Of a stretch of DNA of 64,000 nt, positions 9,583 through 55,884 are shown in pieces. How positions within the stretch are numbered: the first letter of the stretch is position 1; every line of letters starts with the position of its first letter. This DNA comes from an uncultured Thiotrichaceae bacterium (GTDB taxonomy: Bacteria > Pseudomonadota > Gammaproteobacteria > SZUA-229), in contig CAZHEA010000005.1 of the NCBI GenBank assembly GCA_964531165.1, positions 16,858-80,857 of the forward strand, given 5' to 3'. The position numbers were made by a program, and so were the translations under genes. Under the pieces are notes generated by a model that saw only the letters and a program-made list of their open reading frames with translations, had not been told where the DNA came from and did not search any database.

Positions 9583-9783
9583 ATGGATAAACCCAATAAA
9601 GAGCAAAGCATCGATCAGAACCGTCGTGATTTTGTAAAGAAAACCGCATATACAGCACCTGCTATTGTGACTATGGCTGCTATCCCATCATTTGCATCTG
9701 CTGGCTCTTCAAATAGCCACAAACTGGTTGGTAACAGACCACGCCCTGGTACACCGCCATCACAACAGCCAACCCCAAGATAA
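9583..9783 (+). CDS. 66-aa micro-protein with twin-arginine (Tat)-like leader; candidate modified-peptide precursor
   Basis: GAGAGGA Shine-Dalgarno 5 nt before the ATG. 'NRRDFVKK' matches the Tat consensus S/T-R-R-x-F-L-K. The h-region is TAYTAPAIVTMAAIPSFASA with A-x-A before G. The remaining 26 aa are GSSNSHKLVGNRPRPGTPPSQQPTPR. A hairpin follows. Confidence 0.5.
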   Translation: MDKPNKEQSIDQNRRDFVKKTAYTAPAIVTMAAIPSFASAGSSNSHKLVGNRPRPGTPPSQQPTPR

Positions 9784-25956: not shown

Positions 25957-28900
25957 TTACATTGATGCCATTAATTCTGAATACTTAACTGCATAATCAT
26001 TTCTATCCAGTGCTTCTACCAGAGGAATCTGTTCGCCCTGTAAATGCTCATTTTCAGAAATAACTTTAGCCCATTGTTCAATTGTTGGCGATTCAAACAA
26101 ACTGCTAATCGGTAAATCAATTGATAAATACTTTTTAAGTCTTGAAACAACTTGTGTCAGCAGCAATGAATGCCCGCCTAGTTCGAAAAAGTCATCGGAT
26201 ATACCGACATCGGAAATACCCAAAGCTGGTTTCCAGATTTTGGCTATGCTAATTTCCATTTCAGATTCAGGTGCAATATATTCAGTTGACAAATTCGGGC
26301 GTTCCAGACCCTCAAAAGAATCATCATCAAGATCATCTCCAAACTCATCCAGCTTACGCAGCTTACGGGCTTCATTTTTGTATTCTATAAACTCAAGCGG
26401 GCTAACAATAACCTGCGGCGAATGAAAGCTCGATAGCAAAGTTTCGATTGCGCGTAAACCTTCAGCATTTGTCATGCCGGCTTTAAGTCCCATCTCAAAA
26501 AACAGATCACTGGCTGTTTTTTCTGCCTGTACTACTTCAGTTCTATTCGACTTCAAAGATAACAGAACACCGGGATCTACACGTTTCATAATAAACTGAT
26601 TAACCACAACAAGCACTTCACCTGTTGCATTTGTAATCACTACATCAAATATTGAAGTCTGACTACCCTGCCCCTCTGCAGCCGAATACACCACATGTGA
26701 AAACATTTTTTTAGTTAACATCTTAAAAACTGTAATGTGTGAATATGAAATCGGAATATATAAGTCTTTAACCGGATCATAATCCGGGTTCAACGACTGT
26801 GCGGTACCGGTTGCCATATCCATAATCGCTGGATGCAATACATAATCACTAAGTTCATCAATATACTTATCGGCAATTTCCATTTCAACAATGGCTTCTT
26901 TTTTACCGAAATAAATAGCATTCATACAGCGCCATCTATCGCCAAATATCAGGTGATTATGCTCAGCCGAACCTTTCAGTTCAACTTTATCCTTATTGCA
27001 ACGCTCAATTATATTTTCTATATGGATATTTTCTGGCGCAGCTGAATCAATGTATTCCACCACCCCTCTAACATTCTCTTCACCAAACTCACTTTCAATT
27101 AAAAACTCGGTATTATTAACCGTACGTGTTAACTCAATCTTAATGCGCTTTTCTTCATCACCTTCTACAACAAACGGTGACACAAAAAACACATCTGATA
27201 AACGTACGGCTTTGACACCGGGGTTTTCTAAAGTGAATGCAGCGCGAGCCAGCTCTAAATATGCTGTTCCTGGTATTAATGAAACTTTATTTTTAGATCT
27301 ATGTTCATCAATAATCCAATGAGTTTTTGCGCTCAAATTAGCTGAATATTCGACTGTTTCAGCCTTCAGCTTTTGCTTGCGGGTATAAAAGTAATGATCA
27401 GTTAACTCTTCAGCACTATCGGTAGCTCCACCTAGCTGCGAAGCCATGCCAGTTTCAGCCCATACCCCCCAGTTAGCTGCAACCACATTTATTCCATCAG
27501 TATCTTTTTTATACTGGGCATAGGCATTTAAAAACGCATTCGCTGCAGTGTAATCTACCTGACCACTTAAGCCTAGCTCGGTACTGATTGATGAGAACAG
27601 GAATATAAAATCAGGTTTATGCTGCGCCAGTGCTTTATCAAGATTAATTAAACCATCAACCTTCGGCGACAGAACCTTTCGAGCATCCTCTAATGTTTTA
27701 AAAGCAATTAAATTATCGTCAACAATACCGGCCGTATGGAATACACCATTTAGATCACCTAACTCATTAACAGATGAATCAACTGCTGATTGCAATGCAT
27801 CACAATCACTGACATCTACATTAAATGAAAGTATTTTTACATTATTAATTTCAAGGCTTTTTAACTTTTCAATTCTTTGCGCAATAGCCGCATCAAAAGA
27901 CTGAGCATTTCCCCATTGTGATTTATCAGGTAATGGCGTTCTATTTAATATCACCAGATTTGCATCGTAGGTTTTAACCAGGTATTCCGCCAGCTTAAAA
28001 CCAATACCCCCTATGCCACCGGTGATTAGATAATTACCACCTTTTTGTAATGCCGGGGAGACATTCTCTGCTTCACTTACACTTAAATGCTTATATGACT
28101 TAACAAATCGATGTGTACCTCGATAGGCAATATCTTCATCATCTGTGTGCTGCAATACATCTGCACAAATCAGATCCAGCTGCTCCTGCTGTTTCCACTG
28201 TTGTTCTATCTGAAAATCAACATCAATCATTTTGCATGACACATTATTAATTTCCTGTGTCATTACCTTTACCGGCCCCAGCATCGTTGCTTTGAGCGGA
28301 CTCTTAATTGTCTCTGCTGATACCTGTTGACTATAATTAGTAACCGCACTTAGCTGAACTTCGTTATCCGGTTCATTAGCAGCAAAATATCGTGCAATAA
28401 ACAGCAGGCTATTAAAGCCTTTAACAAGATCTTCATTTGCTGCTGTCAAACCGGAGTCACCATTATCAATAGTCCAACCATGTAAAATATGACTGATTTT
28501 ATGTGCCGCTGTTTTATTTATAGATTTAAATGCGCTTGCATAATCCTGCTCGGATTGCGGATTGATCTGATATTCAAATTCAGATATTTTATTATAACTA
28601 TCACCGGCAATTATTGAATAACAGTTTAAATTCCAGTCTGTCAGTTTCTCGATAAGAGATTTTGCATTCTCATTCTCGCTAACAAAGCAGACTATACTCA
28701 GCGCCGCATCATCTTCCTTTGCGACATAATTAATCGCAGGAGAGGTGTCCCAGCCAGGTTGATAAAACCAGTCTGAATAATTTTGTTTCTGTAAGTTTGT
28801 TTCTGCATTTAATTCAAGCCCGCCAAACCCTGGCTCAATCCAGTAGTACTGATGCTCAAACGGATAAGTGGGTAATGGAATACGCCGGCGACTTAAGTCA

Positions 28901-31494
28901 CCATGTGCCAAATTCCAGTTAATATCAATTCCTGCAAGCCACAATTTACCGAATGCAGATAACGCCATACGGCTATCATTATCGGGCTTTTTAGGATGAC
29001 GAATGGTTTGTATAATACTGTGGCCTTGCTGCTTATCTGAACTTGAACGCGCAAAGGTCGATAACGTATTACCCGGACCACACTCAATAAACACGGCATC
29101 AGCTGTTTGCATCAGCGTTGACATACCCGCCGCGAATCGAACCGTGCCACGTAAATGACCAGCCCAGTAATCAGCGTTAGAAACCAGCTCAGGATCAGCC
29201 ATTTCACCTGTTGTATTTGAAACAAACGGTATTGTCATTTCACCGAAGGTAACATCAGCAAACAGTGATTTAAATTCGTCTAAAATAGGATCCATCATTG
29301 ATGAGTGGAAAGCATGCGATGTGTGCAATATTGTTGTATCAATATTTTTCTGTTTAAGATCATCAACCAGTTTATTAACCGCATCATCGGTACCGGAAAT
29401 CACACTGAGGCCAGGTGCATTAATTCCCGCAATCGACAGGTCTTTATTTAAATACACTGTTACCTGATCTTCATCTAATGGCACTACCAGCATCGAGCCC
29501 TTTTCCAGGCCCTGCATTAAGCGTCCACGCGCAGCTACCAGTTTCAGCGCATCTTCTAAACTGAATAAGCCAGCAATACATGCGGCAACATATTCGCCAA
29601 TACTGTGACCAATCATGGCATCTGCATTAATGCCCCATGATTGCAATAGTCTGGTCATCGCATATTCAATAGTGAACAATGCGGGTTGAGTAATTTGTGT
29701 TTCTGCCAGCTTTGCTGATGCTGTATCCAGCTCACTGTCCTGCGGATACAACAAACCTGTAATATTTAGACCCAAACTTGCATTTAACAATGAAGCACAT
29801 TGATCAACCGCATCTTTGAAAACACTTTCATTTTCATACAGGCCTTTGCACATATTGGCATATTGTGAGCCCTGACCGGTGAACATGAAATAAACAGACT
29901 GTTTATTGGGGTTACTCTTCTGACTTATCTGCCGGCTAATATCTTCACCAGACAATGCATGTTTTAAATCTTCTACAGAATTTGCAACCACAATACGTCT
30001 TGATAACTGAGCCTGCCGCCCGACTTTTAAAGTATGCGCTGCATCTGATAAATTAGTCTCCGGATGCTCAGTAAAAAATGTCTGCAGATTTGTGGTGACA
30101 TTATCCAGAGCCGGTGTCGTGCGTGCCGACAGACAGAATAAATGATAACCATCATATTGAGTTGTAGCGGGTAATTCTGGCGCTTCTTCTAAAATAACAT
30201 GCGCATTAGTACCACCCACACCTAAAGAATTAATCGCTGCTCGGCGTTTACCATCTACGTTCCAGTCCTGTAAACTGCTATTAATATAAAACGGGCTGTC
30301 ATCTAAATCTAAAACCGGATTGGGTTTATTAAAATGCAAACTGGCGGGCAATTGTTTATGCTTCATTGATTGCACAATTTTAATTAAACCCACACCACCG
30401 GCTGCAGTATCTAAATGACCGATATTGGTTTTCACCGAACCGATTGCACAATAGTCACTTTTATCGGTCTGGGTTCGATACGCCTGATTTAATGCGGTCA
30501 CTTCAATCGGGTCACCCACCGGTGTGCCGGTACCATGCGTTTCGATATAAGTAATCGACTCTGCATCCACATCGGCAATCATTAATGCTTCAGTAATGGC
30601 AGCGGCCTGACCGTCAACACTCGGTGCCAGATAACCAACCTTACTTGAACCATCATTATTAATTGCTGAGCCTTTAATCAGCGCATGAATTGTATCGCCA
30701 TCATTAATCGCGTCTTCCATGCGCTTTAAAACAACCTGCACTGCACCACTGCCAAAAACCGTACCCATGGATTTCTCATCAAAGGCACGACAGTGACCAT
30801 CAGGCGATTGAATCTCACCTTCTTCATACATGTAACCAACACGGTGTGGCATTTCGATGGTAACACCACCCGCCAGTGCCATATCACATTCACCACTCAG
30901 CAATGACTGAGAGGCTAAATGCAGTGCAACCAGTGATGTTGAGCAGGCGGTTTGTACATTGATACTCGGGCCCTGCAAATTTAAACAGTAGGACACACGG
31001 GTGGTTAAAAAATCTTTATCGTTAGACGTATGACGCGCTAAAAATAACCCCAGAGATTTCATTAAATCCGGATTAGTAAACAAGTTATACGGCATGTATG
31101 CATTATGACCTGATCCACCAAATACACCGATGGAACCAGTATATTGCCGAGGATCATAACCCGCATGCTCTAATGCTTCCCATGACACTTCTAAAAAATG
31201 CCGATGTTGCGGATCCATAATCGACGCATCTTTTGGACTAAAGCCAAATAACGACGCGTCAAACATTTCCATGTTATCTAATGGCCGACCAATTTTCTGG
31301 TAATTAGGGTTATCTAATGTGCTTTGAGGCACACCTCTTTGCAAAAGTTCTTCGTCACTAAATTCCGTATAAGACTCAATGCTATTTTTTAAGTTATACC
31401 AGAAATCATCAACATTATTTGCACCGGGCAAGCGTGCTGCCATCCCGACAATTGCAATATCCGTATCTTCAAATTCAACTTCGTGATCACTCAT
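25957..31494 (-). CDS. type I PKS module KS-AT(malonyl)-KR-DH-ACP
   Basis: KS has 'QTACSTSLVALH', 'ETHGTGT' and 'NIGH'. AT has 'GHSIGEYVAACIAG' and 'HAFHS' (malonyl-type). KR has 'ITGGIGGIG' and 'VDYTAANAF'. The PS-DH-like region has 'IIDEHRSKNKVSLIPGTAYLE' and 'LHPAIMDMA'. The carrier motif is 'FFELGGHSLL'. Confidence 0.95.
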   Translation of the reverse strand: MSDHEVEFEDTDIAIVGMAARLPGANNVDDFWYNLKNSIESYTEFSDEELLQRGVPQSTLDNPNYQKIGRPLDNMEMFDASLFGFSPKDASIMDPQHRHFLEVSWEALEHAGYDPRQYTGSIGVFGGSGHNAYMPYNLFTNPDLMKSLGLFLARHTSNDKDFLTTRVSYCLNLQGPSINVQTACSTSLVALHLASQSLLSGECDMALAGGVTIEMPHRVGYMYEEGEIQSPDGHCRAFDEKSMGTVFGSGAVQVVLKRMEDAINDGDTIHALIKGSAINNDGSSKVGYLAPSVDGQAAAITEALMIADVDAESITYIETHGTGTPVGDPIEVTALNQAYRTQTDKSDYCAIGSVKTNIGHLDTAAGGVGLIKIVQSMKHKQLPASLHFNKPNPVLDLDDSPFYINSSLQDWNVDGKRRAAINSLGVGGTNAHVILEEAPELPATTQYDGYHLFCLSARTTPALDNVTTNLQTFFTEHPETNLSDAAHTLKVGRQAQLSRRIVVANSVEDLKHALSGEDISRQISQKSNPNKQSVYFMFTGQGSQYANMCKGLYENESVFKDAVDQCASLLNASLGLNITGLLYPQDSELDTASAKLAETQITQPALFTIEYAMTRLLQSWGINADAMIGHSIGEYVAACIAGLFSLEDALKLVAARGRLMQGLEKGSMLVVPLDEDQVTVYLNKDLSIAGINAPGLSVISGTDDAVNKLVDDLKQKNIDTTILHTSHAFHSSMMDPILDEFKSLFADVTFGEMTIPFVSNTTGEMADPELVSNADYWAGHLRGTVRFAAGMSTLMQTADAVFIECGPGNTLSTFARSSSDKQQGHSIIQTIRHPKKPDNDSRMALSAFGKLWLAGIDINWNLAHGDLSRRRIPLPTYPFEHQYYWIEPGFGGLELNAETNLQKQNYSDWFYQPGWDTSPAINYVAKEDDAALSIVCFVSENENAKSLIEKLTDWNLNCYSIIAGDSYNKISEFEYQINPQSEQDYASAFKSINKTAAHKISHILHGWTIDNGDSGLTAANEDLVKGFNSLLFIARYFAANEPDNEVQLSAVTNYSQQVSAETIKSPLKATMLGPVKVMTQEINNVSCKMIDVDFQIEQQWKQQEQLDLICADVLQHTDDEDIAYRGTHRFVKSYKHLSVSEAENVSPALQKGGNYLITGGIGGIGFKLAEYLVKTYDANLVILNRTPLPDKSQWGNAQSFDAAIAQRIEKLKSLEINNVKILSFNVDVSDCDALQSAVDSSVNELGDLNGVFHTAGIVDDNLIAFKTLEDARKVLSPKVDGLINLDKALAQHKPDFIFLFSSISTELGLSGQVDYTAANAFLNAYAQYKKDTDGINVVAANWGVWAETGMASQLGGATDSAEELTDHYFYTRKQKLKAETVEYSANLSAKTHWIIDEHRSKNKVSLIPGTAYLELARAAFTLENPGVKAVRLSDVFFVSPFVVEGDEEKRIKIELTRTVNNTEFLIESEFGEENVRGVVEYIDSAAPENIHIENIIERCNKDKVELKGSAEHNHLIFGDRWRCMNAIYFGKKEAIVEMEIADKYIDELSDYVLHPAIMDMATGTAQSLNPDYDPVKDLYIPISYSHITVFKMLTKKMFSHVVYSAAEGQGSQTSIFDVVITNATGEVLVVVNQFIMKRVDPGVLLSLKSNRTEVVQAEKTASDLFFEMGLKAGMTNAEGLRAIETLLSSFHSPQVIVSPLEFIEYKNEARKLRKLDEFGDDLDDDSFEGLERPNLSTEYIAPESEMEISIAKIWKPALGISDVGISDDFFELGGHSLLLTQVVSRLKKYLSIDLPISSLFESPTIEQWAKVISENEHLQGEQIPLVEALDRNDYAVKYSELMASM

Positions 31495-31578: not shown

Positions 31579-34500
31579 CTACTTCTGTCTAGCCCGGCGA
31601 CGATTCAATGTATTTTTACGCGCATCTTTACGTGCTTTTGCGCGGTCTTCACTTTCCGATAGTTTGGAATTAGTGTCAGTATCCGCAGATAGATAATCAC
31701 TAAACTGACGAATCGTTGGAAAGCGAAACATATCTATCATTTTTACCGGCTGGTCAATTGCTTCGCGCAACTTACTTAACACTTCAACCACGAGTAATGA
31801 GTGGCCACCAATATCAAAGAAGTTATCATCCAGCCCTATTTTTTCTAAATTCAACACTGCCTGCCAGCAGGCAACAATGGATTCCTGCAAAGCACTTTCC
31901 GGCTTAACAAAACTTGCACGACTGGCTGTCTGTTTTTTCTGCTCCGGCGCAGGCAATGCATTTCTGTCAGTTTTTCCATTTGGCGTTAATGGCAACGCTT
32001 TAAGTTCAACAAAAATACTCGGCACCATAAACTCGGGCAGGTCAGCAGCCAGTACTTTTTTCAAAGCAACGGCATCAATTGTCTGAGCCGGATTTGCAAC
32101 CACATAAGCAACCAGCCGCTTATCATTAGGCGTGTCTTCGCGTAAAACTACCACCGCGTCTGAAACCGTATCATCATTTGACAATAATGATTCTATCTCA
32201 CCCAGCTCAATCCGGTAGCCGCGAATTTTTATCTGATGATCGATACGCCCCAGACATTCCAGAACTCCGTCATCGTTATACTGAACCAGATCTCCAGTGC
32301 TGTACATGCGACTACTTGAATCATCAACAAAGGGATTATTAATAAATTTTTCAGCGGATAAATCTGCTCGCTGGTGATAACCGCGTACCACCCCGTCACC
32401 GGCAATATAAAGTTCACCCGGCGTATTCACCGGCACCGGTTGTTTAAATTTATCCAGCACATAAAGCTGTGTATTGGCGATAGGTTTTCCGATTAATATT
32501 TTTTGATCACTGGCATTTATATTTTGTGTTGTTGACCAGATAGTTGTCTCGGTCGGCCCATACATATTGGTTACCGTATTCTGAACTCTGGACGTTAACT
32601 GTTTAGCCAGATTCATCGGAAACGCTTCACCGCCAATCATAATATGTTTTATTTTATTTAACTTATCAGCACTATCGCTATCCGCAACCAGCATACTTGC
32701 CATTGAAGGCGTACACTGTAAATGAGTCACACTTCGTGACTCAATAATATCTGCAACGCTTAAGTCATGTTCAGCTTCACTCACTGCCTGCTTAATGCTC
32801 AATTTTCGTAAGTTATTCAGCGGCGGCAAATGTTTTAAAACATTTTCTGTATCCAGGCCATAATCAATCAAGCAGCCAATTTCATTGACGCCAATTTCCT
32901 TAACCCGGTCAACCATTGCCAGACAACGTTCAGGTGTACCGAATAAGCCACTGGTTTCGTAATAACGTAAAAATGCAAATTCCAGAATACCATCAAAATC
33001 CTCATCCGTAATATTTTCAAAAAATTCGTCAAGTGTCTGACCGGTCTCTTCTGATAAGGCTTTGAATGTTGGAAAATTCCAGGCGGCTGCTTTAACCAGA
33101 AACATCGCACTTTTAAGATATTTTTTCATCGGCGCGCGAGCCAGATTTTTTACTTTTTCATCATCATCACCGACTAAAGTATGCAGCAATAATGTGACAT
33201 GACCTTCACCCGCATAACCGGCTTTTTTATAGGCTTCGCGATAAATTTCAATATTCACTGCCACCTCATCAACCGTTTGCCCTAGCAAATGGGTTAGAAT
33301 ATTTGCACCTGTTTCACCTGCCTGTCTAAAGGTTTCCGGATTGCCAGCCGTAGTCACCCATATTGGTAACTTTTTCTGTACCGGACGCGGTAAGGTTCTG
33401 ACTTTGACATCTTTACCATCGTGACCAGTAAATTCAAGTGTCTCTCCACTCCAGAGTTTCTGAACCGTCTTCGCCGATTCAAACATAACATTTTTAGCAT
33501 CTGCAAAATTTTGCGGCATAATAACAAAATCATTCGGCTGCCAGCCTGCTGCAATAGCAAGGCCGGCACGACCTTTTGAGATATTATCAATCATTGACCA
33601 GTCTTCGGCAATGCGAATAGGGTGATGCAACGGCACCACACAACTGCCCGCACGAATGTGAATATTTTCAGTAATCGCGGCTAATGCTGCACTGGTGACT
33701 GACGGATTTGGATATAGCCCACCAAATGAATGAAAATGCCGCTCCGGTGTCCATACCGCTTTAAAATTATTTTTATCACCAAACTTGGCGCTTTCCATTA
33801 ACAGGCGATACGGATCATCATCGTATTCAGATTCATCGTCTGCCACATTCCAGTAAAACAAACTAAATTCGATATCCTGATCTGGATAAGCCGTACGCGT
33901 TTTTTTAGATGATTTACGTTGCGCGTCAGAAAACAGGGCCAGCTCATATCCGCTGGCCAGCGTCCAGAAAATTTCCAGTACGGATATATCAAAAGAAATA
34001 CTGGTCACTGCCAGCCACACACCATGCGGGTCTGTAATAACACTGTTCATACCATGGAAAAAGTTCGCCACATTTGCATGCTCAACCATCACACCTTTAG
34101 GCTTGCCGGTTGAACCCGACGTATAAATGGTATAAGCCAGATGATGGCTGGTGACAGATGTAACTGGATTGGTCTGCGCAAACGAAGCGAGTGAACTTTG
34201 AGCGGTGTCAATAAATAACACATTAACAGTCAGGTTATGAAGGTAATCTACATGATCATTTTGAGTAATCACTGCAGCAACCTGTGCATCTTCCAGCATA
34301 TACTCAATACGATCTTTAGGGTAAGTCGGATCAAGAGGCAAATAAGCCGCACCGGATTTTAACACCCCCAGCATACATACGATCATATCGATTGAACGAT
34401 CTAATAATACACCGACCAGTTGATCGGGTTTTAAGTTTTTAGAGATAAGATAATGTGCAACCTGATTAGCACGTTGATTTAACTCTTTATAGCTAATCTC

Positions 34501-36234
34501 AGTACCTGAAAAAGACAGGGCTGTAGCCGCAGGTGTTTTTTCAACCTGTTTTTCAAACAGCTGATGAATACATTGGCTATTGTCATAGTTACTTTCTGTT
34601 TGATTCCATTGGTTAATTAATTTTTCGTAATCAGCAGTGGATAATAATGAGGTATCTGCAAGACTTGCCTGTGAATTACTCACTGTATTGTCTAAAAACG
34701 AAATAAATAATTTTTGCAGCTGGGCTATTTTATTTGCACTATAACTATGTTCATTAAAATGCCAGACAACTTCCGCAGTCTGAGTATTAATCGCTAAAAC
34801 CAGATCCGCATCGGTGCAGGAATCTATTTGCTGATTGCTTTGTACTTCAGTAATGACTAGCGTTTTATTAATTGAGTTAAGCTTTAGTTCCGGATGCCGG
34901 CTAATTAAATCTTTACAGTAACGCCCATCTTCTGAACTCCGGGCAAGTTTTTGTTCGGTTGAGTCTAAAATATCAGCAACTGCAGCAGCAAAATCAATAT
35001 CGAATTTAAGCGGTACACATGTCTCTATCATCAGTTTGTTAATTGCATTTTTTTCAGGCTGATAAAAAAACAGATTGAACTCAGACTGACAGGTAAGACG
35101 CGCAAAAAACAATGTTAAGTAACTCTGCATTGTTTGCAGACTTTCACCTGATAACTGCGGCGTATTTTGCGATGACGATACATAAGACGACTTGCCTGCA
35201 CTCTGTGCCTTTTCAGATTCAGTGGATGGCACTAACTGGTTTAATGCTTGTAACTGCTGCAACCAGTTATCTTCATGTTTACAGAAGCTTTCATTAAATT
35301 GTGTTAATTCAGCTGCTTTAGCCTGATCAATTACAGGTAATACATCACCTACTTTTATAGATGTTTGCTTTACCAGTTCATTAACACTTATGTTATTTCC
35401 CTGACTATCCATAATGCTGGAACATGAGATCACTGCATCTTTAGCGGAAATATCCAACGTAGAATCCAGAGATATAATCTGCCCTGGTTGAGCTGCTGCT
35501 GTATTGCAGACAGTTGCCTCATGAATATAAAAAACATTATCGTTTAGTAAAATTTTAGGTAACGAAACAGGATTGGAATAAGGACCGAAGTGTAACGCAC
35601 GTATGGTTGCATCAATTTTATCAGCATCACATTGCCAGTCTAAAATAGCCATTGCCGGAATACGCTGACAACCGCGGTAAAAAACCGATTCACCGGCATC
35701 TTGCGCAAGCCTGGTTAATTTATTATTTGACAAATCCAGCATTAAATCACTAAAACTGGTTAATGCGGCTTCATAACATTTTGCATTTAAAGTGAATGCG
35801 GTTTCATTTGATTCAAGTTCAAATTTAACCTGCTTTAATACATGTCCTTCATCTACCGCTTCAGTCATTTCATGCCAGGTAATACCGTGCTCGGTTTCCT
35901 GATTGTATATCGCCCATGTCGTGACGTTTAAGCCGGCATAGCCGGGCAGTAAGCCATCATGAAAATTGATTGCGGTATTTTTTGCGAGTTTTAAAACCAC
36001 AGAGGGTATAATTTTAAGGTGTGTAATACTGAAAATGTAATCAACAGAGCCTAAAGCTATAAGCTGCTTCTGATCGGCAACACTGAATACGCTAAAACCA
36101 GAATTATTTGCCCAGTTAATAATTGAAGCATCATCACTAACAACCGCTTTAACTTCTATATTCTGGTCTTTAATAACCTGATAACACTGTATTAATAGTG
36201 ACTTTCCGCCAAACAGATAACATGTTTTACTCAT
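31579..36234 (-). CDS. NRPS initiation-type module: formyltransferase-like domain, partial C-like region, A domain (Gly code) split by a luciferase-like monooxygenase, T domain
   Basis: aa 1-300 carry 'INFHDGLLPGYAGLNVTTWAI...GITWHEMTEAVDEGHVL' (Fmt-type N/H/D residues). aa ~370-545 resemble the C-terminal half of a condensation domain and lack HHxxxD. The A domain has 'YTSGSTGKPKGV', 'SFDISVLE', an insert, then 'HLQCTPS', 'NMYGPTETT', 'YSTGD', 'IKIRGYRIELGEIE' and 'PNGKTDR'. T domain 'FFDIGGHSLL'. The C-terminal tail KARKDARKNTLNRRRARQK is basic. Confidence 0.9.
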   Translation of the reverse strand: MSKTCYLFGGKSLLIQCYQVIKDQNIEVKAVVSDDASIINWANNSGFSVFSVADQKQLIALGSVDYIFSITHLKIIPSVVLKLAKNTAINFHDGLLPGYAGLNVTTWAIYNQETEHGITWHEMTEAVDEGHVLKQVKFELESNETAFTLNAKCYEAALTSFSDLMLDLSNNKLTRLAQDAGESVFYRGCQRIPAMAILDWQCDADKIDATIRALHFGPYSNPVSLPKILLNDNVFYIHEATVCNTAAAQPGQIISLDSTLDISAKDAVISCSSIMDSQGNNISVNELVKQTSIKVGDVLPVIDQAKAAELTQFNESFCKHEDNWLQQLQALNQLVPSTESEKAQSAGKSSYVSSSQNTPQLSGESLQTMQSYLTLFFARLTCQSEFNLFFYQPEKNAINKLMIETCVPLKFDIDFAAAVADILDSTEQKLARSSEDGRYCKDLISRHPELKLNSINKTLVITEVQSNQQIDSCTDADLVLAINTQTAEVVWHFNEHSYSANKIAQLQKLFISFLDNTVSNSQASLADTSLLSTADYEKLINQWNQTESNYDNSQCIHQLFEKQVEKTPAATALSFSGTEISYKELNQRANQVAHYLISKNLKPDQLVGVLLDRSIDMIVCMLGVLKSGAAYLPLDPTYPKDRIEYMLEDAQVAAVITQNDHVDYLHNLTVNVLFIDTAQSSLASFAQTNPVTSVTSHHLAYTIYTSGSTGKPKGVMVEHANVANFFHGMNSVITDPHGVWLAVTSISFDISVLEIFWTLASGYELALFSDAQRKSSKKTRTAYPDQDIEFSLFYWNVADDESEYDDDPYRLLMESAKFGDKNNFKAVWTPERHFHSFGGLYPNPSVTSAALAAITENIHIRAGSCVVPLHHPIRIAEDWSMIDNISKGRAGLAIAAGWQPNDFVIMPQNFADAKNVMFESAKTVQKLWSGETLEFTGHDGKDVKVRTLPRPVQKKLPIWVTTAGNPETFRQAGETGANILTHLLGQTVDEVAVNIEIYREAYKKAGYAGEGHVTLLLHTLVGDDDEKVKNLARAPMKKYLKSAMFLVKAAAWNFPTFKALSEETGQTLDEFFENITDEDFDGILEFAFLRYYETSGLFGTPERCLAMVDRVKEIGVNEIGCLIDYGLDTENVLKHLPPLNNLRKLSIKQAVSEAEHDLSVADIIESRSVTHLQCTPSMASMLVADSDSADKLNKIKHIMIGGEAFPMNLAKQLTSRVQNTVTNMYGPTETTIWSTTQNINASDQKILIGKPIANTQLYVLDKFKQPVPVNTPGELYIAGDGVVRGYHQRADLSAEKFINNPFVDDSSSRMYSTGDLVQYNDDGVLECLGRIDHQIKIRGYRIELGEIESLLSNDDTVSDAVVVLREDTPNDKRLVAYVVANPAQTIDAVALKKVLAADLPEFMVPSIFVELKALPLTPNGKTDRNALPAPEQKKQTASRASFVKPESALQESIVACWQAVLNLEKIGLDDNFFDIGGHSLLVVEVLSKLREAIDQPVKMIDMFRFPTIRQFSDYLSADTDTNSKLSESEDRAKARKDARKNTLNRRRARQK
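32830..33879 (-). other. luciferase-like monooxygenase (MupA/Atu3671-type, TIGR04020-like) domain inserted between A-domain cores A4 and A5
   Basis: aa ~786-1135: 'FSLFYWNVADDE...AKFGDKNNFKAVWTPERHFHSFGGLYPNPSVTSAALAAITENIHIRAGSCVVPLHHPIRIAEDWSMIDNISKGRAGLAIAAGWQPNDF'. It is flanked by 'SFDISVLE' (A4) and 'NMYGPTE' (A5). Confidence 0.8.
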
Positions 36235-36728: not shown

Positions 36729-39224
36729 TTACTGAATTATTTCAAAACTATCCGCGGTGCCTACAAAAGGCAAATTAGACACGCTTTGAGCATAGGTAAT
36801 CAGGCCAACATAGACAGAAGCCCCATAACTGGGCGCCCCACCAGGCAACGCACCACCACCTCGAGAATAACCCTCATAAAGCTGCCAGTTATCAGATTGA
36901 CTGACACCTACAGGTGATTGCCAGTATACCGTCAGAGATCTATTCGAGTTGCCGACAATTCTCAGATCAACCCTGCCTGATGACGCAACGCCCTGACCTG
37001 CATCATCAACACTGGAAGACCCATCGACGGTGTTCTTACCTTCAACTGTGAATGATGTACTTCCACGATGACCAACAACAATGTGAGATGAATTTTTACT
37101 TGCTAAATCAAGCACGTGCACCTGCACACCAGCAAAGATAAACTGATAGCCATTGGGGGTCGGCGCTGTCTGCGAATCAGACTGAGTACCTATACCGATA
37201 TTTCTCACAATAACTTCAAATGGAAAACTGACTAATTTAGCGTCAAGACGTCCCTGCACATTATTGTAATGCAGGGTTTTATCACCACTATTATCAACCA
37301 GATTCGCTCGATAACGACCATTCACTCTAGCAACATCAGGCAAATCTGTCGCATTGTTTACCGTATAACCAATTAATGCACCGTCACCATCAAACAGGTC
37401 AATGTCACTGGCCGCCTGTGTTGCACTTTGTACTAGTAGTGAATCAGCCCGACTAAAGAGAAAACCATCACTTACAGTCAGCGACACAAGGTATTCCCCG
37501 TCTTTATCAGCGGTAAACGACGGTGTGGCGATATTAGGATCATCTAACACAGCAATACTGTCGGCCGGTACACTTAACGACCAATCGTAACTCAGGTTAT
37601 CATTGTTCGGGTCATCACTCGCCCGACCATCTAGATTAACCTTTGCACCTGTCGTTACATTTTGATTTGCACCGGCATCGGCTACTGGTGGACTATTACT
37701 TGTCGTTGCGCTAATGACTACAGAATCAAGCTCACTGTTTAACTGACCATCATTAACGATTAAATTAACCACATAATCACCGTCAACATCAGCCGTAAAA
37801 TTTGTTATTTGAGTGTTTGCTGGTACCAGAGCTGCACCACTAGTCATAGGCCTGGTTGCTAGTACCCAGCTATATGACAGATCATCACCATTCACATCCA
37901 TACTGCCAATTGCGTTAAGCTCAACATTAGTGCCCGTCGATACACTTTGATTAGCCCCTGCGTCTGCCGTGGGAGCGACATTAGCGGCGCTACTGGTAAT
38001 TAAGACCGTATCGACCTGACTCATCAGAACACCATCACTAACCGTTAAACTGACCAGATAACTGCCGTCGCTGTCCGCATTAAATGTTGGCGACACCGCA
38101 CTAGTTGAGCTCAAAACCGCCTGGCTATTTGCAGGCTTCGACAGAACCCAGCTAAAGGTTAAGTTATCTTTATCTGCATCATCACTTTTGCTACCATCCA
38201 GCTTAACCTGCGAGCCCGTATTCACCGACTGTGCGGGGCCTGCATCAGCAATTGGCGCGCTATTAGCTGTTGAACTCGTAATAACGACCGTATCACTCGG
38301 GCTGGTAAGCAACCCGTCATTAACCGTTAAGGTTGCCACGAATCTGCCATCAACATCAGCCATAAACTCAGGCATAACCGCAGATGAAGAACTTAACGAA
38401 GCCTGACTCCCCTCAGGCACAGTCAGCACCCAGTTGAAGCTTAAGTTGTCGACATCCGCATCACTGCTATCACTACCGTCGAGCATAACCGGCACTAATG
38501 AGCCGGTAGAAACATTTTGATTAATACCGGCATTTGCTACCGGTGCACTATTTGCTGTTGAACTCACAATAATAACGTTGTCAGCCTCACTTGAAAACTC
38601 ACCATCATTTACCGTTAAGCTAACAACATAGCGACCATCGCGATCGGCTATAAAAGTGGGTGCTACAGCATTAAGCGAACTCAGAACCGCATTACTACCC
38701 TGTGGCTTTTCAAGCAGCCAGCTAAAACTGAGTGTATCCTTATCCGCATCAGTGCTTTCGCTACCATCAAGACGAATCAGGGCCGTAGTAAAGACATTTT
38801 GATTAGCCCCGGCATTTGCAACCGGCGCGCTGTTAGCGACAGAACTCACCACGGTAACATAAGATATTGAACTCAATACTCCGTCACTCACTGTCACACT
38901 CAACACATATTCGCCACTGACATCAGCGATAAATTCCGGGGTTATTGTTTCATCATTGCGTAAAACTGTGTTGCTGCTTGCAGGGCTTGTAACGAAAACC
39001 CAGCGATAAGTTAACCCACTTTGTTTTGGATCTTGACTGTCACTTGCATCGAGTTGAACCAGGGAACCGGTTTTAATGTTTTGGTTACTACCTGCATCTG
39101 CCTCAGGCTTCGGGCTCGAAGTAACAGGATCAGTCTCCAACTGCCCTTCACAAGACCAAAGTACAGCAACAAACATCAACAGGAATATTTTATTCCCGAT
39201 ATAAAAAGTAGATTTGAAAGACAT
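36729..39224 (-). CDS. lipoprotein with six PKD/Ig-like repeats and an unrecognised ~225-aa C-terminal domain
   Basis: Signal with Cys (LMFVAVLWSC). Six roughly 95-aa repeats read 'ANSAPVA[ND]AG.NQNV.TG..V.LDGS.S.DAD.D.L.F.W.L..P..S.A.LSS..AV.P.F.AD.DG.Y.V.LTV.DG'. The C-terminal domain is homologous to almost all of ORF 39330..40133. Confidence 0.8.
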   Translation of the reverse strand: MSFKSTFYIGNKIFLLMFVAVLWSCEGQLETDPVTSSPKPEADAGSNQNIKTGSLVQLDASDSQDPKQSGLTYRWVFVTSPASSNTVLRNDETITPEFIADVSGEYVLSVTVSDGVLSSISYVTVVSSVANSAPVANAGANQNVFTTALIRLDGSESTDADKDTLSFSWLLEKPQGSNAVLSSLNAVAPTFIADRDGRYVVSLTVNDGEFSSEADNVIIVSSTANSAPVANAGINQNVSTGSLVPVMLDGSDSSDADVDNLSFNWVLTVPEGSQASLSSSSAVMPEFMADVDGRFVATLTVNDGLLTSPSDTVVITSSTANSAPIADAGPAQSVNTGSQVKLDGSKSDDADKDNLTFSWVLSKPANSQAVLSSTSAVSPTFNADSDGSYLVSLTVSDGVLMSQVDTVLITSSAANVAPTADAGANQSVSTGTNVELNAIGSMDVNGDDLSYSWVLATRPMTSGAALVPANTQITNFTADVDGDYVVNLIVNDGQLNSELDSVVISATTSNSPPVADAGANQNVTTGAKVNLDGRASDDPNNDNLSYDWSLSVPADSIAVLDDPNIATPSFTADKDGEYLVSLTVSDGFLFSRADSLLVQSATQAASDIDLFDGDGALIGYTVNNATDLPDVARVNGRYRANLVDNSGDKTLHYNNVQGRLDAKLVSFPFEVIVRNIGIGTQSDSQTAPTPNGYQFIFAGVQVHVLDLASKNSSHIVVGHRGSTSFTVEGKNTVDGSSSVDDAGQGVASSGRVDLRIVGNSNRSLTVYWQSPVGVSQSDNWQLYEGYSRGGGALPGGAPSYGASVYVGLITYAQSVSNLPFVGTADSFEIIQ
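37425..39107 (-). repeat. six tandem ~285-nt coding repeats (PKD/Ig-like modules)
   Basis: Protein aa ~40-600, with the period marked by the recurring 'S[ST][AT]ANSAP[VI]A[ND]AG' junctions. Confidence 0.8.
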
Positions 39225-39329: not shown

Positions 39330-40133
39330 TCATTCAAAAATCTCTATTGCATCACAAGTACCTACAAATGGCAGATCCTGACTTCCCTGAGCATAAGTAA
39401 TGAGGCCAACATAAACGGTCGCCCCATAAGTAGGAGCAATTCCCGGCAATCGTCCTCCACCTCTTTTATAGCCTTCATAAAGAACCCAGTTATCTTCACT
39501 TTGATCCGGTTGTTGCCAGTATATAGTTATCGTTCTATCAGAATTACCGACAACACGAATATCAGCTCGCCCTAAGGGCACAACATTAGAACCGATATCA
39601 TCAACCGATGAAGAGCCATTCAAGGTATTTTTACCTTCGATAGTAAATGGCGTACCGCCTCTATGACCGACAACGATATGCGATGAATTACGCGATTCAA
39701 GGTCAGGAACATGTATTTGAACACCAGCAAAAATATAACTACTGCCATTGGAGCTATGAGGTATCTGTGAATCCAGCTGTGTCCCTATACCTATATTTCT
39801 AGCAATAAATATAAAGGGAAAAGACAGCAGTTTAGCGTCCAGACGACCCTGATCATTTTGATAATGTAAGGTAATATCGTTTGAGTTATCCGTTAAATTA
39901 GCCCGATACCGGCCCGAAACTACAGTCACATCGGGCAAACTACTTTCATTGTTAGTAATAAAGCCGAGCAGATTTCCATTAACCGAAAAATCATCGCTTT
40001 TTATCGATAATTCAGTTGAATTTGTGCCTCCTCCAGAAACAGAAGGATCGTTATTGTTAACAGACGCATCATCTGAAGAGCCACATGCAACCGAACCCAG
40101 AAGATACAATAACAATAGAGAGAATTTTTTCAT
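39330..40133 (-). CDS. lipoprotein consisting of the same unrecognised domain (paralog of the 831-aa protein C-terminus)
   Basis: 'LLGSVACGSS' lipobox-like. 'LPDVTVVSGRYRANLTDNSNDITLHYQNDQGRLDAKLLSFPF...IGIGTQLDSQ...IFAGVQIHVPDLESRNSSHIVVGHRGGTPFTIEGKNT.NGSSSVDD...YWQQP...NWVLYEGYKRGGGRLPG.APTYGATVYVGLITYAQ...LPFVGT' aligns colinearly with aa ~615-831 of ORF 36729..39224. Confidence 0.7.
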   Translation of the reverse strand: MKKFSLLLLYLLGSVACGSSDDASVNNNDPSVSGGGTNSTELSIKSDDFSVNGNLLGFITNNESSLPDVTVVSGRYRANLTDNSNDITLHYQNDQGRLDAKLLSFPFIFIARNIGIGTQLDSQIPHSSNGSSYIFAGVQIHVPDLESRNSSHIVVGHRGGTPFTIEGKNTLNGSSSVDDIGSNVVPLGRADIRVVGNSDRTITIYWQQPDQSEDNWVLYEGYKRGGGRLPGIAPTYGATVYVGLITYAQGSQDLPFVGTCDAIEIFE

Positions 40134-40586: not shown

Positions 40587-43430
40587 ATGAATGCTTTTAT
40601 ATACAAATCCAGGATTTTATTATTAATCGTGTCTTTTCAACTCGTATCATGTGCGGGTGAAGTAGACGATATCCCTGAAGCTGCTGCCAGTCCGGGACAA
40701 AGTAATAACAACCCTGCTGATACAATCGCACCAAGCAAACCTTCCAGTCTGACGGTTACCGACAATCAGATTTCCAGCATTCAAATTAGCTGGCAGGCGT
40801 CAACAGACAATGCAGGTATAGCAACTTATTCTATCTACCGTAATGGTAGTTTTTACGCAACATCTAATAACACTGTTTTCACGGATAACAATATTTCTGG
40901 CAATACAGCTTATCAATATTACGTTGAAGCTTATGACACTTCCGGTAACAAGTCTGCTGTATCCAGCACCCTGAACATCACCTCTATAGAAAGCCCGACA
41001 AGTGGTAACACACCACCAACCGGAGGTGGCACACCATCCAATAATGATACGGTCTCACCAACCACACCATCCAGCCTGGTCGCGGGTAATGTACTAAGCT
41101 CTAGTGTTAGTTTTAGCTGGAATGCATCAACTGACGATACAGCAGTAATTGGATACAATATATACAGAAATGGCAATTCTATTGGTATCGCAATAACTAA
41201 CACATTTGTCGATAATGCCGTTGCCAGTTCAAGCAACTATGTCTACAGCGTTCAGGCTTATGATGCAGCAAACAATCGCTCATCATTATCTTCACAGATA
41301 AATATTTCAACACCTGCCGCCCCTCCGATTAATAACAATAATACCGTTAGTCGTGATTACATTTTATTTTTAAATGATGCCAAGTTAGCTGCAATTACAG
41401 CAGATTCAGGCAATGCAAATAGTCCATGGCCGACCATGCGTCAGTTTTGTACTGACCGAGACGGATTGAATCCACCATGGGATTATCAGGGAAGCCAGTA
41501 CTATCGTTATGCCGTTAATTTCGCATTATGCTATCGGGTTGAGAGTTATTTAGGTAATGCGACTGCAGCGGTTACTCATGCAGAAAACGCTTTACGAATT
41601 TTAAATAACAACCTGATCAGTTTTTCAAGCTTTTCAAATGATAGTGGCTATGGTATCCGTAATTACGGTCCCGGCCTTGCAATCACCTATAGCTGGTTAA
41701 GTGACTATTCAGGATTTACTGCCGGACAAAGAGCCGCAGCCCGCTCACGTATGAAAGAGTGGACTGACTGGTTTGCAGTAAGTGGTTACTCAAGAAATGA
41801 GCCTATCGCAAATTACCATGCCGGTTATATGGAAGCTGCCGTACTCTCGAGTATTGCCATTTATAATGATGACCCCGATGGCGACACATATTTACAAACT
41901 GCTATTTCTTTATTTAATGATGGGCGAACACTGTTTGATGCAACAATGCCAGGCGGTCACTGGCCTGAAGGCTGGAGTTACGGTGCTGGTGTGTATGCCT
42001 CATACGCCATGGCTACAGCAGCTCTCGTTGAAGCAACTAATGATGCAACCTATAAGCAGTTTAGCTGGTTGGAAAAGAATATCGATCTTAAATTAGCGGC
42101 ACTAAGCCCTGATGGAAAATATTTTTATGATGACGGGCTGTGGAGCTTAAATCGTAATGGAGTACCATTAATTCAGGACATGTACTCTATTGGGTACTTA
42201 TATGGCTGGGATACACCAAATGGGCAAAAGACTCAACGTTACATAGAAAACACCGGGCTTAAAAACTCATCTAACGAATGGCGTGACTTTTTATTCTATA
42301 GTGATAGCGCTGCGGCAGGCTCAGTTGCAGACAACAACGTGAGTAACTCATACCATGCCACTGGAACAGGCCTGGTCACCATGCGCGGCAAACGTTCTGA
42401 CCCGAATGCGACCTGGGGAAGCTTTATAGCCGGTCCTTACCTGTCTTATGAAAATGAACAGGATTTTGATCAGGGCCATATGATTATCTATAAAACAGCA
42501 CCTCTTTTAGTGGATGCCGGACATGGTTTATACAATCCAGATAATTTAACTGCTACACAACATCACAATACATACACATTAGAAAACAGAACTGATGTTT
42601 CTTTCAATGGGCAACGTAATAACGCACAAACTGAAGGATGCCCAAATGATCCTATTGGAATAGAAAAGTATCTTGATAACACGTCAAGTGTATTTACTAG
42701 AGGTGAGTTTTCAAACGCATACAAACCCAAGCCATTATATGACGGAACATGCTATAGCCCCGGCATAAAGAGCCTTACGCGTAATGTCTTTTATTTAAGA
42801 CCTAATCTGTTTTTTGTTTACGATCAGATCGAAAAAATAGCCTCTCAGGCAACTGTATTACCACACATGCGTCTACACTTCCCTACTCAACCTTCTGGCG
42901 TAAACTCTAATCGCGACGTAACAGTCAATAATGGAACCGGTAGATTACACGTATCAACCGTCTTCCCCGTCAACTCAGTAAATACTATTGTTAATAACTC
43001 CTCAACAGGAGCTGCTAAAGCAGGCTGGACAATGGACATCGCTCACTCTGATAACTCATTAATGTATTATAATTACCTTAATGTATTAAGAGCTGGACTC
43101 AATCAAAGCAACTATGCAGCACCGGTAACGACAGCTATCAGTGGCAACAACTCATATGGTGTATTTGTTAGCAATTTAAATACTGACGAGCTTACAAATG
43201 GATCCGTCACTGTTATTTTTATTGACTCTGCCGGTAACGGTATCCCCTCAAACGCGTCATATACTTTACCTGGCGCAGCATCACAATCAAAAAATTACAT
43301 CCTCAACTTAAAAGCAAATACGCAATATAGTGTCGATATAAGCACAAATGGTAATACTTCAATTACGATAACAGAAGGTGCAGGAAGCTATACCTCTGAC
43401 CAGTCAGGCATGATTGAAATAAATTTATAA
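40587..43430 (+). CDS. lipoprotein: 2x FN3 + heparinase II/III-like (polysaccharide lyase-like) region
   Basis: 'FQLVSCAG' lipobox. Two FN3-like modules read 'PS.PSSL.V......S.I..SW.AS.D...I..Y.IYRNG......N..F.D......N..Y.Y.V.AYD..GN.S..S'. Then come 'WDYQGSQYYRYAVNFALCY', 'GGHWPEGWSYGAGVY', 'DQGHMIIYK..PLLVDAGHGLYN' and 'HHNTYTL', a heparinase II/III-type pattern. Confidence 0.55.
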   Translation: MNAFIYKSRILLLIVSFQLVSCAGEVDDIPEAAASPGQSNNNPADTIAPSKPSSLTVTDNQISSIQISWQASTDNAGIATYSIYRNGSFYATSNNTVFTDNNISGNTAYQYYVEAYDTSGNKSAVSSTLNITSIESPTSGNTPPTGGGTPSNNDTVSPTTPSSLVAGNVLSSSVSFSWNASTDDTAVIGYNIYRNGNSIGIAITNTFVDNAVASSSNYVYSVQAYDAANNRSSLSSQINISTPAAPPINNNNTVSRDYILFLNDAKLAAITADSGNANSPWPTMRQFCTDRDGLNPPWDYQGSQYYRYAVNFALCYRVESYLGNATAAVTHAENALRILNNNLISFSSFSNDSGYGIRNYGPGLAITYSWLSDYSGFTAGQRAAARSRMKEWTDWFAVSGYSRNEPIANYHAGYMEAAVLSSIAIYNDDPDGDTYLQTAISLFNDGRTLFDATMPGGHWPEGWSYGAGVYASYAMATAALVEATNDATYKQFSWLEKNIDLKLAALSPDGKYFYDDGLWSLNRNGVPLIQDMYSIGYLYGWDTPNGQKTQRYIENTGLKNSSNEWRDFLFYSDSAAAGSVADNNVSNSYHATGTGLVTMRGKRSDPNATWGSFIAGPYLSYENEQDFDQGHMIIYKTAPLLVDAGHGLYNPDNLTATQHHNTYTLENRTDVSFNGQRNNAQTEGCPNDPIGIEKYLDNTSSVFTRGEFSNAYKPKPLYDGTCYSPGIKSLTRNVFYLRPNLFFVYDQIEKIASQATVLPHMRLHFPTQPSGVNSNRDVTVNNGTGRLHVSTVFPVNSVNTIVNNSSTGAAKAGWTMDIAHSDNSLMYYNYLNVLRAGLNQSNYAAPVTTAISGNNSYGVFVSNLNTDELTNGSVTVIFIDSAGNGIPSNASYTLPGAASQSKNYILNLKANTQYSVDISTNGNTSITITEGAGSYTSDQSGMIEINL

Positions 43431-43510
43431 AACTATCTGTATGCTTTACTTAAAGCATACAGATACAATCTGAATATAAAACCATTTATATATGTACAGG
43501 CAACGATGAC

Positions 43511-45124
<1,614 letters not shown>

Positions 45125-53220: not shown

Positions 53221-53221
53221 T

Positions 53222-55871: not shown

Positions 55872-55884
55872 AAATAATTCACAT

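Follow-up and report, generated by a model that had tools for sequence, protein, structure and literature searches.

A predicted glycine-loading protein with a formyltransferase domain and an embedded monooxygenase, and its conserved pairing with a one-module polyketide synthase

What is made by an assembly-line protein that joins a formyltransferase domain (F), half of a condensation (C) domain, a glycine-type adenylation (A) domain interrupted by a luciferase-like flavin monooxygenase (MOx), and a carrier (T) domain, and where in its pathway does it act? The question is raised by a nonribosomal peptide synthetase (NRPS) gene at 31579..36234 of the window analysed here, a 64,000 nt stretch of contig CAZHEA010000005.1 (assembly GCA_964531165.1) from an uncultured Thiotrichaceae bacterium. 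The protein is best read as the loading module of a three-protein line, NRPS to polyketide synthase (PKS) to NRPS, on which glycine would be loaded, N-formylated, alpha-hydroxylated and passed to the PKS; the probability of this reading is put at about 0.62. The domain identities and folds, the conserved catalytic residues, the glycine codes and the conserved pairing with a protein of one PKS module are established here. An earlier note on this DNA had likewise preferred colinear use as a starter, and offered as its alternative a terminating module that forms an amide.

Domain Organisation of the Starter Protein

The open reading frame (ORF) at 31579..36234 is open throughout, lies on the reverse strand, starts with ATG and encodes 1551 aa. 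Its product is ordered as F, X (half C), N-terminal part of the A domain, MOx, C-terminal part of the A domain, T and basic tail, as follows.

35350..36234, reverse strand: F domain, aa 1-295; motif INFHDGLLPGYAG, residues N90/H92/D128 (Pfam, AlphaFold2 (AF2) model, Foldseek, phmmer against the PDB)
34591..35349, reverse strand: X region, aa 296-548, modelled as the C-terminal lobe of a C domain plus the C-A linker (AF2, Foldseek, profile alignment)
33883..34590, reverse strand: A domain, N-terminal part, aa 549-784, cores A1-A4, FDIS at aa 748-751; code residues D749, I750 and L753 (Pfam AMP-binding)
32791..33882, reverse strand: luciferase-like flavin monooxygenase (MOx) within the A domain, aa 785-1148 (TIGR04020; PDB 6KET, PuwE)
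31915..32790, reverse strand: A domain, C-terminal part, aa 1149-1440, cores A5-A10; code residues Q1173, M1199, G1201, M1224, I1232, W1233 and K1421 (TIGR01733, AMP-binding_C)
31675..31914, reverse strand: T domain (peptidyl carrier protein, PCP) with the phosphopantetheine-attachment serine in GGHS (Pfam PP-binding)
31582..31674, reverse strand: basic C-terminal tail (..DRAKARKDARKNTLNRRRARQK), candidate docking element (conserved charge and motif)

Pfam located Formyl_trans_N at aa 57-156 (4e-17), Formyl_trans_C at aa 194-289, Bac_luciferase at aa 789-1117 (1e-48), AMP-binding_C at aa 1346-1421 and PP-binding at aa 1452-1515. AMP-binding was split into two stretches, the top-scoring one at aa 560-775, and the NCBIfam A-domain model picked up again at about aa 1151. 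The domain calls of the earlier note were all borne out by these profile searches, and its half C domain by AF2 and Foldseek. The F domain thus stands where a formylation domain is expected, N-terminal to an A-T loading unit (F-X-A(MOx)-T), and the phosphopantetheine serine of the T domain is invariant across 81 homologue sequences. Between 20400 and 37000, predicted promoters and terminators were no more numerous than the shuffled expectation, and the operon is not delimited by them.

An AF2 model of aa 1-560, built with 59 homologues, has a mean pLDDT (predicted local distance difference test) of 92.9. As modelled, the F domain is a complete formyltransferase fold, with a catalytic N-subdomain and an OB-like C-subdomain. 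In Foldseek comparisons the first 300 residues superpose on methionyl-tRNA formyltransferases and on the formyltransferase domain of ArnA, the OB-like C-subdomain included (target-normalised TM-score 0.83–0.89, E ~1e-23). The strings INFHDG and AVDEGHV are both present, and the formyltransferase Asn/His/Asp residues that the earlier note saw in them hold across the family: N90 and H92 are found in all 81 homologues and D128 in 80, and the three line up with the catalytic motif of WbkC in a phmmer alignment. The motif NFHDG-LP-YAG is specific to the family. By sequence, the nearest PDB proteins are WbkC (1.8e-21) and ArnA (4e-18), both sugar N-formyltransferases, while the F domain of LgrA scores about 8e-6.

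The region between F and A (aa 296-560) gave no Pfam match in the 1551-aa protein, Condensation included. Its AF2 model (pLDDT 91.8) resembles NRPS C domains and C-A didomains (Foldseek E 1e-10 to 1e-7), with McyB C1A1 at the top (1.3e-10) and then Txo1, LgrA, EntF and RzmA. The profile of the region is colinear with residues 187-470 of the C domain in the product of the third operon gene, that is, with everything beyond HHxxxD as far as the start of the A domain. Fold and alignment together support the earlier proposal that only the C-terminal subdomain of a C domain is present. In the model, the X region is a C-terminal lobe with the C-A linker and no catalytic lobe; of the two lobes of a C domain it has one, it carries no HHxxxDG, and it should be incapable of condensation. 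The missing lobe would leave the loading module unable to take an upstream chain. Column conservation among homologues is low, which, with the absence of HHxxxDG, suggests that the role of the X region is presumably structural; we infer that it is a non-catalytic scaffold for the A domain that preserves the interface between C-lobe and A.

The specificity code, re-derived by hand from the core motifs, is DILQMGMIWK, identical to the glycine-like code given previously. All 81 family members read DI[LF]QxGxxWK, a glycine signature, with Leu at the third position in 80 of them, and on this signature the A domain most likely activates glycine. The positions of FDIS (A4, aa 748-751) and NMYGPTE (A5, aa 1222-1228) confirm that the luciferase-like monooxygenase (LLM) interrupts the A domain between A4 and A5, the identical point at which the MOx domains of MtaG and MelG are placed (PMC10204066); the protein thus shares with these two a glycine A domain interrupted by a MOx between A4 and A5. 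The insert matches TIGR04020 (MupA/Atu3671 family LLM, dependent on flavin mononucleotide, FMN) at aa 790-1143 with 483.8 bits against a cut-off of 244.45, over the full length of the model (positions 1-341). Its closest solved structure is PuwE (PDB 6KET; 7.9e-109, about 50% identity over 359 residues). The monooxygenase and aminotransferase domains of PuwE are credited with the 3-amino-2-hydroxy acyl chain of puwainaphycin, a hydroxylation alpha to a carrier-bound thioester (PMC4219810). In MtaG/MelG, SolF, FshJ and the crz-like systems the MOx is assigned to alpha-hydroxylation of glycine (PMC10204066, PMC11411415, PMC11342130, PMC13548996). In papers dated up to 2026, such A(MOx) units are called rare and are said to lie always inside glycine-activating A domains, and the role proposed for them, where there is one, is formation of a terminal amide (PMC13548996, PMC11342130).

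The C-terminal tail carries a net positive charge in 50 of 55 homologues (median +5) and has the motif DRAxxRRxxMxxRR, and the N-termini of the partner PKSs in related loci are short and mostly acidic. The window has both the basic tail and an acidic N-terminus on the PKS, as described earlier. These charges are compatible with a docking pair, for which the two ends are candidates.

The Operon and Its PKS Partner

Four further genes follow the starter gene on the same strand.

25957..31494, reverse strand: PKS module, 1845 aa, ketosynthase-acyltransferase-ketoreductase-dehydratase-carrier protein (KS-AT-KR-DH-CP) (Pfam and motif reading)
22702..25923, reverse strand: NRPS module C-A-T, 1073 aa; hand-derived A code DILQLGMVWK, glycine-like (Pfam)
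21862..22647, reverse strand: H1, protein of the alpha/beta-hydrolase fold (Pfam Hydrolase_4; best NCBIfam match TIGR03101, 83.7 bits, cut-off 202.75)
21027..21857, reverse strand: H2, alpha/beta hydrolase (Pfam; best NCBIfam match TIGR03100, 57.4 bits, cut-off 168.45)

The KS of the PKS has a Cys-His-His active site, the AT motifs (GHSIG and HAFH) are of the malonyl type, and candidate active-site residues are present in KR and DH. By hand assignment, the KR reads IVDD where B-type KRs carry LDD. The protein has an acidic N-terminus and no thioesterase (TE). Its carrier motif is the PCP-like GGHSL, not the GxDS usual in acyl carrier proteins (ACPs), and its DH motif, HRSKNKVSLIP, is one residue longer than HxxxGxxxxP.

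The code of the C-A-T protein, DILQLGMVWK, is also seen as a string among the glycine A domains of the starter family, and its closeness to that of the starter suggests duplication. The condensation motif of this protein is HHIILDH, not HHxxxDG. H1 has an Arg at the nucleophile position (GYRYG), and G-x-R-x-G is kept in all six homologues; by this residue it is probably catalytically inactive. In an alignment of homologues, H2 shows a conserved Cys nucleophile motif (GLCTG, GxCxG) and a conserved C-terminal His. On these residues, H2 is proposed as the release or transfer enzyme and H1 as its non-catalytic partner. The two hydrolases fall far below the cut-offs of TIGR03100 and TIGR03101, their top family matches, and are only distant relatives of those families.

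The five-gene arrangement is retained by a homologue at 80% identity, the upstream neighbours of which are different. Among related loci, a KS-AT-KR-DH-CP protein lies directly after the F gene in about 33, upstream on the same strand in 9 and on the opposite strand in 3, and all-against-all clustering of flanking ORFs returned the PKS as the sole universally conserved neighbour. In Rhodobacteraceae the order is PKS, family 2 glycosyltransferase (GT2), F gene, phosphopantetheinyl transferase. An unverified lead is given by Inhi_1972 (PKS) and Inhi_1974 (NRPS) of Phaeobacter inhibens (PMC4062626), the spacing of which fits the Rhodobacteraceae order. The PKS ends in a TE in both two-gene partners scanned (Pfam, n = 2). 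No second loading module was found in any related locus, the F gene being the only loading-type A-T unit even where the PKS is upstream or on the opposite strand. A PKS that begins with a KS and has its own TE, together with the missing catalytic lobe of the half C domain, marks out the F protein as the starter irrespective of gene order. The earlier note had looked to homologous clusters for cases in which the gene comes last and another protein is clearly the starter; the gene does follow the PKS in the nine loci, none of them has an alternative starter, and so the colinear reading stands. Its preference for colinear use is supported by the PKS pairing and the missing catalytic C half.

Distribution of the Family

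A search of a collection of 5.8 billion proteins found about 90 clusters with the full-length architecture (1450–1680 aa, 37–85% identity). Their sources are Gammaproteobacteria, Planctomycetes, Ramlibacter and Rhodobacteraceae, and their annotation goes no further than 'LLM class oxidoreductase' or 'MupA/Atu3671 family'. When one genome of each species was scanned for the motifs [IV]NFHDG[PL]LP and [ED]TA[FL][TS]LN[AT][KR]C, at least 599 stretches were returned, and relatives with F and half C were confirmed in at least 595 species genomes. The best 80 of these relatives are spread over Alpha-, Beta- and Gammaproteobacteria, Myxococcota, Planctomycetota, Chloroflexota, Acidobacteriota, Gemmatimonadota, Bacteroidota/Rhodothermota, Actinomycetota, Verrucomicrobiota and Cyanobacteriota. 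The F domain of the nearest species-level genomes is at most about 46% identical to that of the window. The CAZyme, PKD and XrtA genes of the window, together with homologues in Agarilytica, Spongiibacteraceae and Oleiphilus, would fit a marine gammaproteobacterium as the source.

An exhaustive HMMER search with aa 1-550 gave 1354 clusters (at 50% identity) with E <= 1e-30. Sequences were obtained for 147 of the 150 best clusters listed; of these 147, at least 43 are F-X-A-T proteins without an insert and about 38 carry the MOx, a share of roughly a quarter to a third. The F-X-A-T proteins without MOx also stand at the start of NRPS lines. The breadth of the F plus half-C unit indicates a general NRPS starter cassette, of which the MOx-interrupted glycine version is a large sub-family. 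Several departures from the standard layout were seen. In one protein (P0040), a hexapeptide acyltransferase of NeuD/PglD type is fused ahead of F-X-A(MOx)-T. Another variant, F-X-A-T-C-A(MOx)-T, holds an F loader and a downstream C-A(MOx)-T module in a single protein, and in several family representatives C domains precede F-X.

The earlier note had called the arrangement unusual and knew of no characterised pathway that joins an F domain with an A-embedded MOx. Full-text searching of the literature also found none, nor any paper on a Roseobacter NRPS/PKS/glycosyltransferase cluster of this kind, so this part holds, while the protein is not unusual: it belongs to a family conserved in many phyla. 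The F domain, the glycine A domain and the embedded alpha-hydroxylase are each known on their own. With hundreds of species in at least 12 phyla, a single characterisation would annotate a very large orphan group, now named only 'MupA/Atu3671 family LLM', and the glycine A(MOx) unit, so far termed rare, would prove common. Cultured carriers occur in Rhodobacteraceae, Ramlibacter, Neorhizobium, Novosphingobium and Myxococcus; individual ones include Jhaorihella thermophila DSM 23413, Ramlibacter rhizophilus, Neorhizobium tomejilense, a Novosphingobium sp. and Pseudophaeobacter sp. EL27.

Proposed Pathway and Alternatives

In the proposed pathway the A domain would activate glycine and load it onto the T domain. 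The F domain would move a formyl group from N10-formyl-tetrahydrofolate onto the glycyl amine, as in LgrA and in OzmO/CongA/PtxE, and the FMN-dependent MOx would hydroxylate the carbon alpha to the thioester, as proposed for MtaG/MelG and PuwE, to give N-formyl-alpha-hydroxyglycyl-S-T. This carbinolamide may be retained, or it may break down to formamide and glyoxylyl-S-T. The starter would then be handed to the KS of the next protein, possibly aided by the basic tail, and one malonyl extension with reduction and dehydration would yield a 4-substituted but-2-enoyl thioester. The C-A-T protein would couple the but-2-enoyl unit with a second glycine, and the Cys hydrolase H2, with the non-catalytic H1, would free or transfer the product. 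Of these steps, the formylation of Gly-S-T, where and when hydroxylation takes place, what becomes of the carbinolamide, and the identity of the final product are predictions. Whether it is the N-formyl carbinolamide or the glyoxylyl thioester that is passed on, the starter chemistry would have no described precedent.

Several points weigh against this pathway. The whole family is known from sequence alone, and to formylate and then hydroxylate a starter glycine is a chemical logic without precedent. The His motif is peculiar to the family, which has NFHDG where formyltransferases have N-x-H-G/P-S. The F domain is closer in sequence to the sugar N-formyltransferases WbkC and ArnA than to the F domain of LgrA, and the gene often lies among sugar-modifying genes, which makes a sugar substrate conceivable. 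About ten loci have no PKS within 6–10 kb of the F gene. This last figure is partly an artefact of ORF calling in high-GC DNA, where the caller takes spurious ORFs on the opposite strand (e.g., in loci L001, L025, L068 and L072), so that counts of loci without a nearby PKS are overestimated.

The alternative that departs least from this pathway is a sub-case of it and differs in the fate of the carbinolamide alone. The formyl group would be a transient handle: the carbinolamide collapses, formamide leaves, and the PKS starts from glyoxylyl-S-T to make an (E)-4-oxobut-2-enoyl electrophile. N-acyl-alpha-hydroxyglycines are the proposed intermediates of amide release by MtaG/MelG, in which a T-bound glyoxylate is left (PMC11342130, PMC13548996, PMC11411415), and the MOx of the starter protein sits at the same A4-A5 position as theirs (PMC10204066). 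Set against this, solanimycin B and spergualin retain an acyclic alpha-hydroxyglycine (PMC10204066), so the carbinolamide need not collapse, and the sequence does not discriminate between the two fates; the collapse is a possible outcome, though clearly the lesser one. It is a good deal less probable that the F domain does not act on Gly-S-T at all, and that it formylates another amine (an amino sugar of a neighbouring polysaccharide pathway, or the final product) or is a structural remnant, leaving the MOx to tailor the starter alone. Such a role would agree with the top PDB matches of the domain, which are the sugar enzymes, and with the glycosyltransferases, Wzx/Wzy and deacetylases that recur beside the gene. 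The fusion of F ahead of A-T, on the other hand, matches that of proven or accepted formylating loaders (PMC5764310), and F-X-A-T proteins without MOx, which are even commoner, likewise start NRPS lines. Conservation of the triad across phyla argues against a remnant.

Two further explanations were given very low probabilities. The protein could act out of order as a terminating module of the MtaG/MelG type, onto whose glycine a chain would be condensed, hydroxylated and released as a primary amide. It does have the A(MOx)-Gly unit of those proteins, and it does come after the PKS in nine related loci. Its C domain, however, has neither the N-lobe nor HHxxxDG; it has no TE, while both of the scanned two-gene PKS partners end in one; and since no locus has another loading module, the KS-first PKS would be left without the upstream donor that it needs. 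The amide-forming module offered by the earlier note is in this way essentially excluded, lacking as it does a C N-lobe and facing, in homologues, a KS-first PKS as the only other megasynthase. Alternatively, the protein could be an oxazole-forming loader of the OzmO/CongA/PtxE type, whose formyl-glycine is extended and cyclodehydrated to a 5-substituted oxazole. An F-A(Gly)-T loader feeding a malonyl-extending KS is indeed the logic of oxazolomycin, conglobatin and phthoxazolin (PMC5764310). Translated in all six frames, however, the window contains no match to SGG[KVL]DS, that is, no PP-loop ATPase of the OzmP/CongE/PtxD type, and in about 80 related loci the loosened pattern was matched only three times, once by SGGKDS itself. 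The first PKS module would also reduce and dehydrate the beta-keto group that cyclisation requires, and the MOx would have no role. With the cyclodehydratase absent from the window and the beta-keto group reduced, the oxazole route is very improbable, and loading of an N-formylated, alpha-hydroxylated glycine remains the preferred reading.

Co-location with Exopolysaccharide and Exosortase Genes

The window holds a second large locus on the same strand as the NRPS-PKS operon.

48548..63685, reverse strand: exopolysaccharide (EPS) locus of XrtA/PEP-CTERM type (NCBIfam and Pfam)

It encodes an exporter (TIGR03027, 199 bits, cut-off 180), a chain-length determinant (TIGR03007, 332 bits, cut-off 279), a tyrosine autokinase, an ATPase, two polysaccharide deacetylases, a Wzy-like ligase, Wzx, three family 4 glycosyltransferases (GT4), a hexapeptide acyltransferase and a GT2. 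TIGR03015 and TIGR03018 (XrtA-associated tyrosine autokinase and PEP-CTERM ATPase) are the top matches of their proteins and score under cut-off. G+C content is 32–36% in the EPS locus and 40–45% in the NRPS-PKS operon. No exosortase gene was found within the 64-kb window. A 191-aa ORF at 8926..9501 (forward strand) ends in VPVPAALWLFGSGLIFLSGISRRRKS, which presumably resembles a sorting signal of the VPLPA/PEP-CTERM type and would fit an exosortase system in the genome.

In Agarilytica the F gene lies two genes beyond an exosortase and a large tetratricopeptide repeat (TPR) protein, which we take to be PrsT. In two loci, L028 (at 8151..9718) and L045 (Agarilytica), genes for a B12-binding-domain protein and a MeaB-like GTPase stand between the exosortase and TPR genes and the F gene. 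In Oleiphilus, an exosortase, H1 and H2 flank the F gene. In Sphingobium, Novosphingobium, Neorhizobium, Rhodobacteraceae, Planctomycetota, Rhodothermales, Acidimicrobiales and Gemmatimonadota it adjoins or directly follows glycosyltransferase, Wzx/Wzy or chain-length genes. A polysaccharide-type gene is found within 10 kb in at least 30 of the 58 loci of at least 12 kb in one search set, and in about 37 of 58 when an earlier set is added. Random loci would be expected to show such a gene in roughly one case in four. This expectation is a rough one, and the counts are uncorrected for phylogeny, so the recurrent co-location of the NRPS-PKS operon with EPS genes is only suggestive of a link. The association emerged from family-level searches, not from the clustering of flanking ORFs.

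This co-location motivates a reading in which the product, a small acyl unit, would be attached to a polysaccharide or used by an exosortase system. Tentatively, F-X-A(MOx)-T with a one-module PKS could be, rather than a conventional antibiotic cluster, an accessory of EPS and exosortase loci that is both ancient and widespread. It would make an oxidised, glycine-derived acyl unit (derived from N-formyl-alpha-hydroxyglycine, or glyoxylyl/4-oxobutenoyl), which a TE or H1/H2 would move onto a polysaccharide or which would serve as a linker for exosortase attachment of PEP-CTERM proteins. In the window, the operon would stand, in more elaborate form, in place of the ligase/ACP/hydrolase-1/hydrolase-2 cassette known from XrtA systems. 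We regard this as possible, at a likelihood well short of even. Through its recurrent placement in polysaccharide and exosortase loci, the gene could tie assembly-line enzymology to the biology of cell-surface glycans or PEP-CTERM proteins, a connection open to testing.

Other Genes in the Window

Between the EPS locus and the NRPS operon lie two reverse-strand genes, for a PKD-repeat protein of 831 aa (36729..39224) and a protein of 267 aa (39330..40133), whose C-terminal ~45 residues are nearly identical (…GGG.LPG.AP.YGA.VYVGLITYAQ…LPFVGT.D..EI). The 831-aa protein also has a Pfam Sde0182_C match at aa 150-174, outside the shared stretch. Divergent from this pair, and in the same interval, are genes for a CbhB-like exoglucanase and a PelZ-like pectate lyase (40587..45124, forward strand). 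Directly downstream of H2 and on the same strand, 12611..20686 encodes a protein of 2691 aa in which seven bacterial TSP3 repeats are accompanied by three Golvesin C-terminal domains.

Comparison with Known Systems

The earlier note named LgrA and MtaG/MelG as precedents and left the closest characterised systems unmentioned. These are the F-A(Gly)-PCP loaders of oxazolomycin, conglobatin, phthoxazolin and rhizopodin (OzmO, CongA, PtxE and the rhizopodin loader), which likewise consist of F, a glycine A domain and a carrier and pass formyl-glycine to a malonyl-extending KS (PMC5764310). The starter protein of the window is, like OzmO/CongA/PtxE, a glycine-specific F-A-PCP unit that feeds a PKS, here without their PP-loop cyclodehydratase. 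Unlike them, it has a MOx embedded in its A domain, and the PKS module that follows is of the cis-AT type with KR and DH.

With MtaG/MelG, FshJ, SolF and the crz-like systems, it shares a TIGR04020 LLM inside a glycine A domain (PMC10204066, PMC11342130, PMC13548996). MtaG/MelG (C-A(MOx)-T-TE) and FshJ are terminating modules for which amide release is proposed, and SolF is an internal elongation module. The protein studied here departs from the C-A(MOx)-T-TE layout of MtaG/MelG, being a loader with F, half a C domain and no TE. In PuwE (6KET), the MOx is found between PKS and NRPS modules beside an aminotransferase, not within an A domain, and acts on a fatty beta-amino acyl chain.

LgrA, the F-A-PCP starter of linear gramicidin, also has a domain of formyltransferase fold ahead of A-T, with the Asn/His/Asp triad. 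Its F domain is joined directly to the A domain. In the window protein, by contrast, a remnant C-lobe separates the two, the F sequence is distant, and the amino acid is glycine in place of valine.

A last likeness is to the exosortase-A-associated cassette of acyl-CoA ligase (TIGR03098), hydrolase 1 (TIGR03100) and hydrolase 2 (TIGR03101), with which the operon shares a pair of hydrolases beside an adenylating enzyme and a carrier. That cassette also includes an ACP and a pyridoxal phosphate (PLP)-dependent decarboxylase. In contrast to it, the operon pairs hydrolases that score far under the cut-offs of those families with a three-module NRPS-PKS in place of the simple ligase and ACP.

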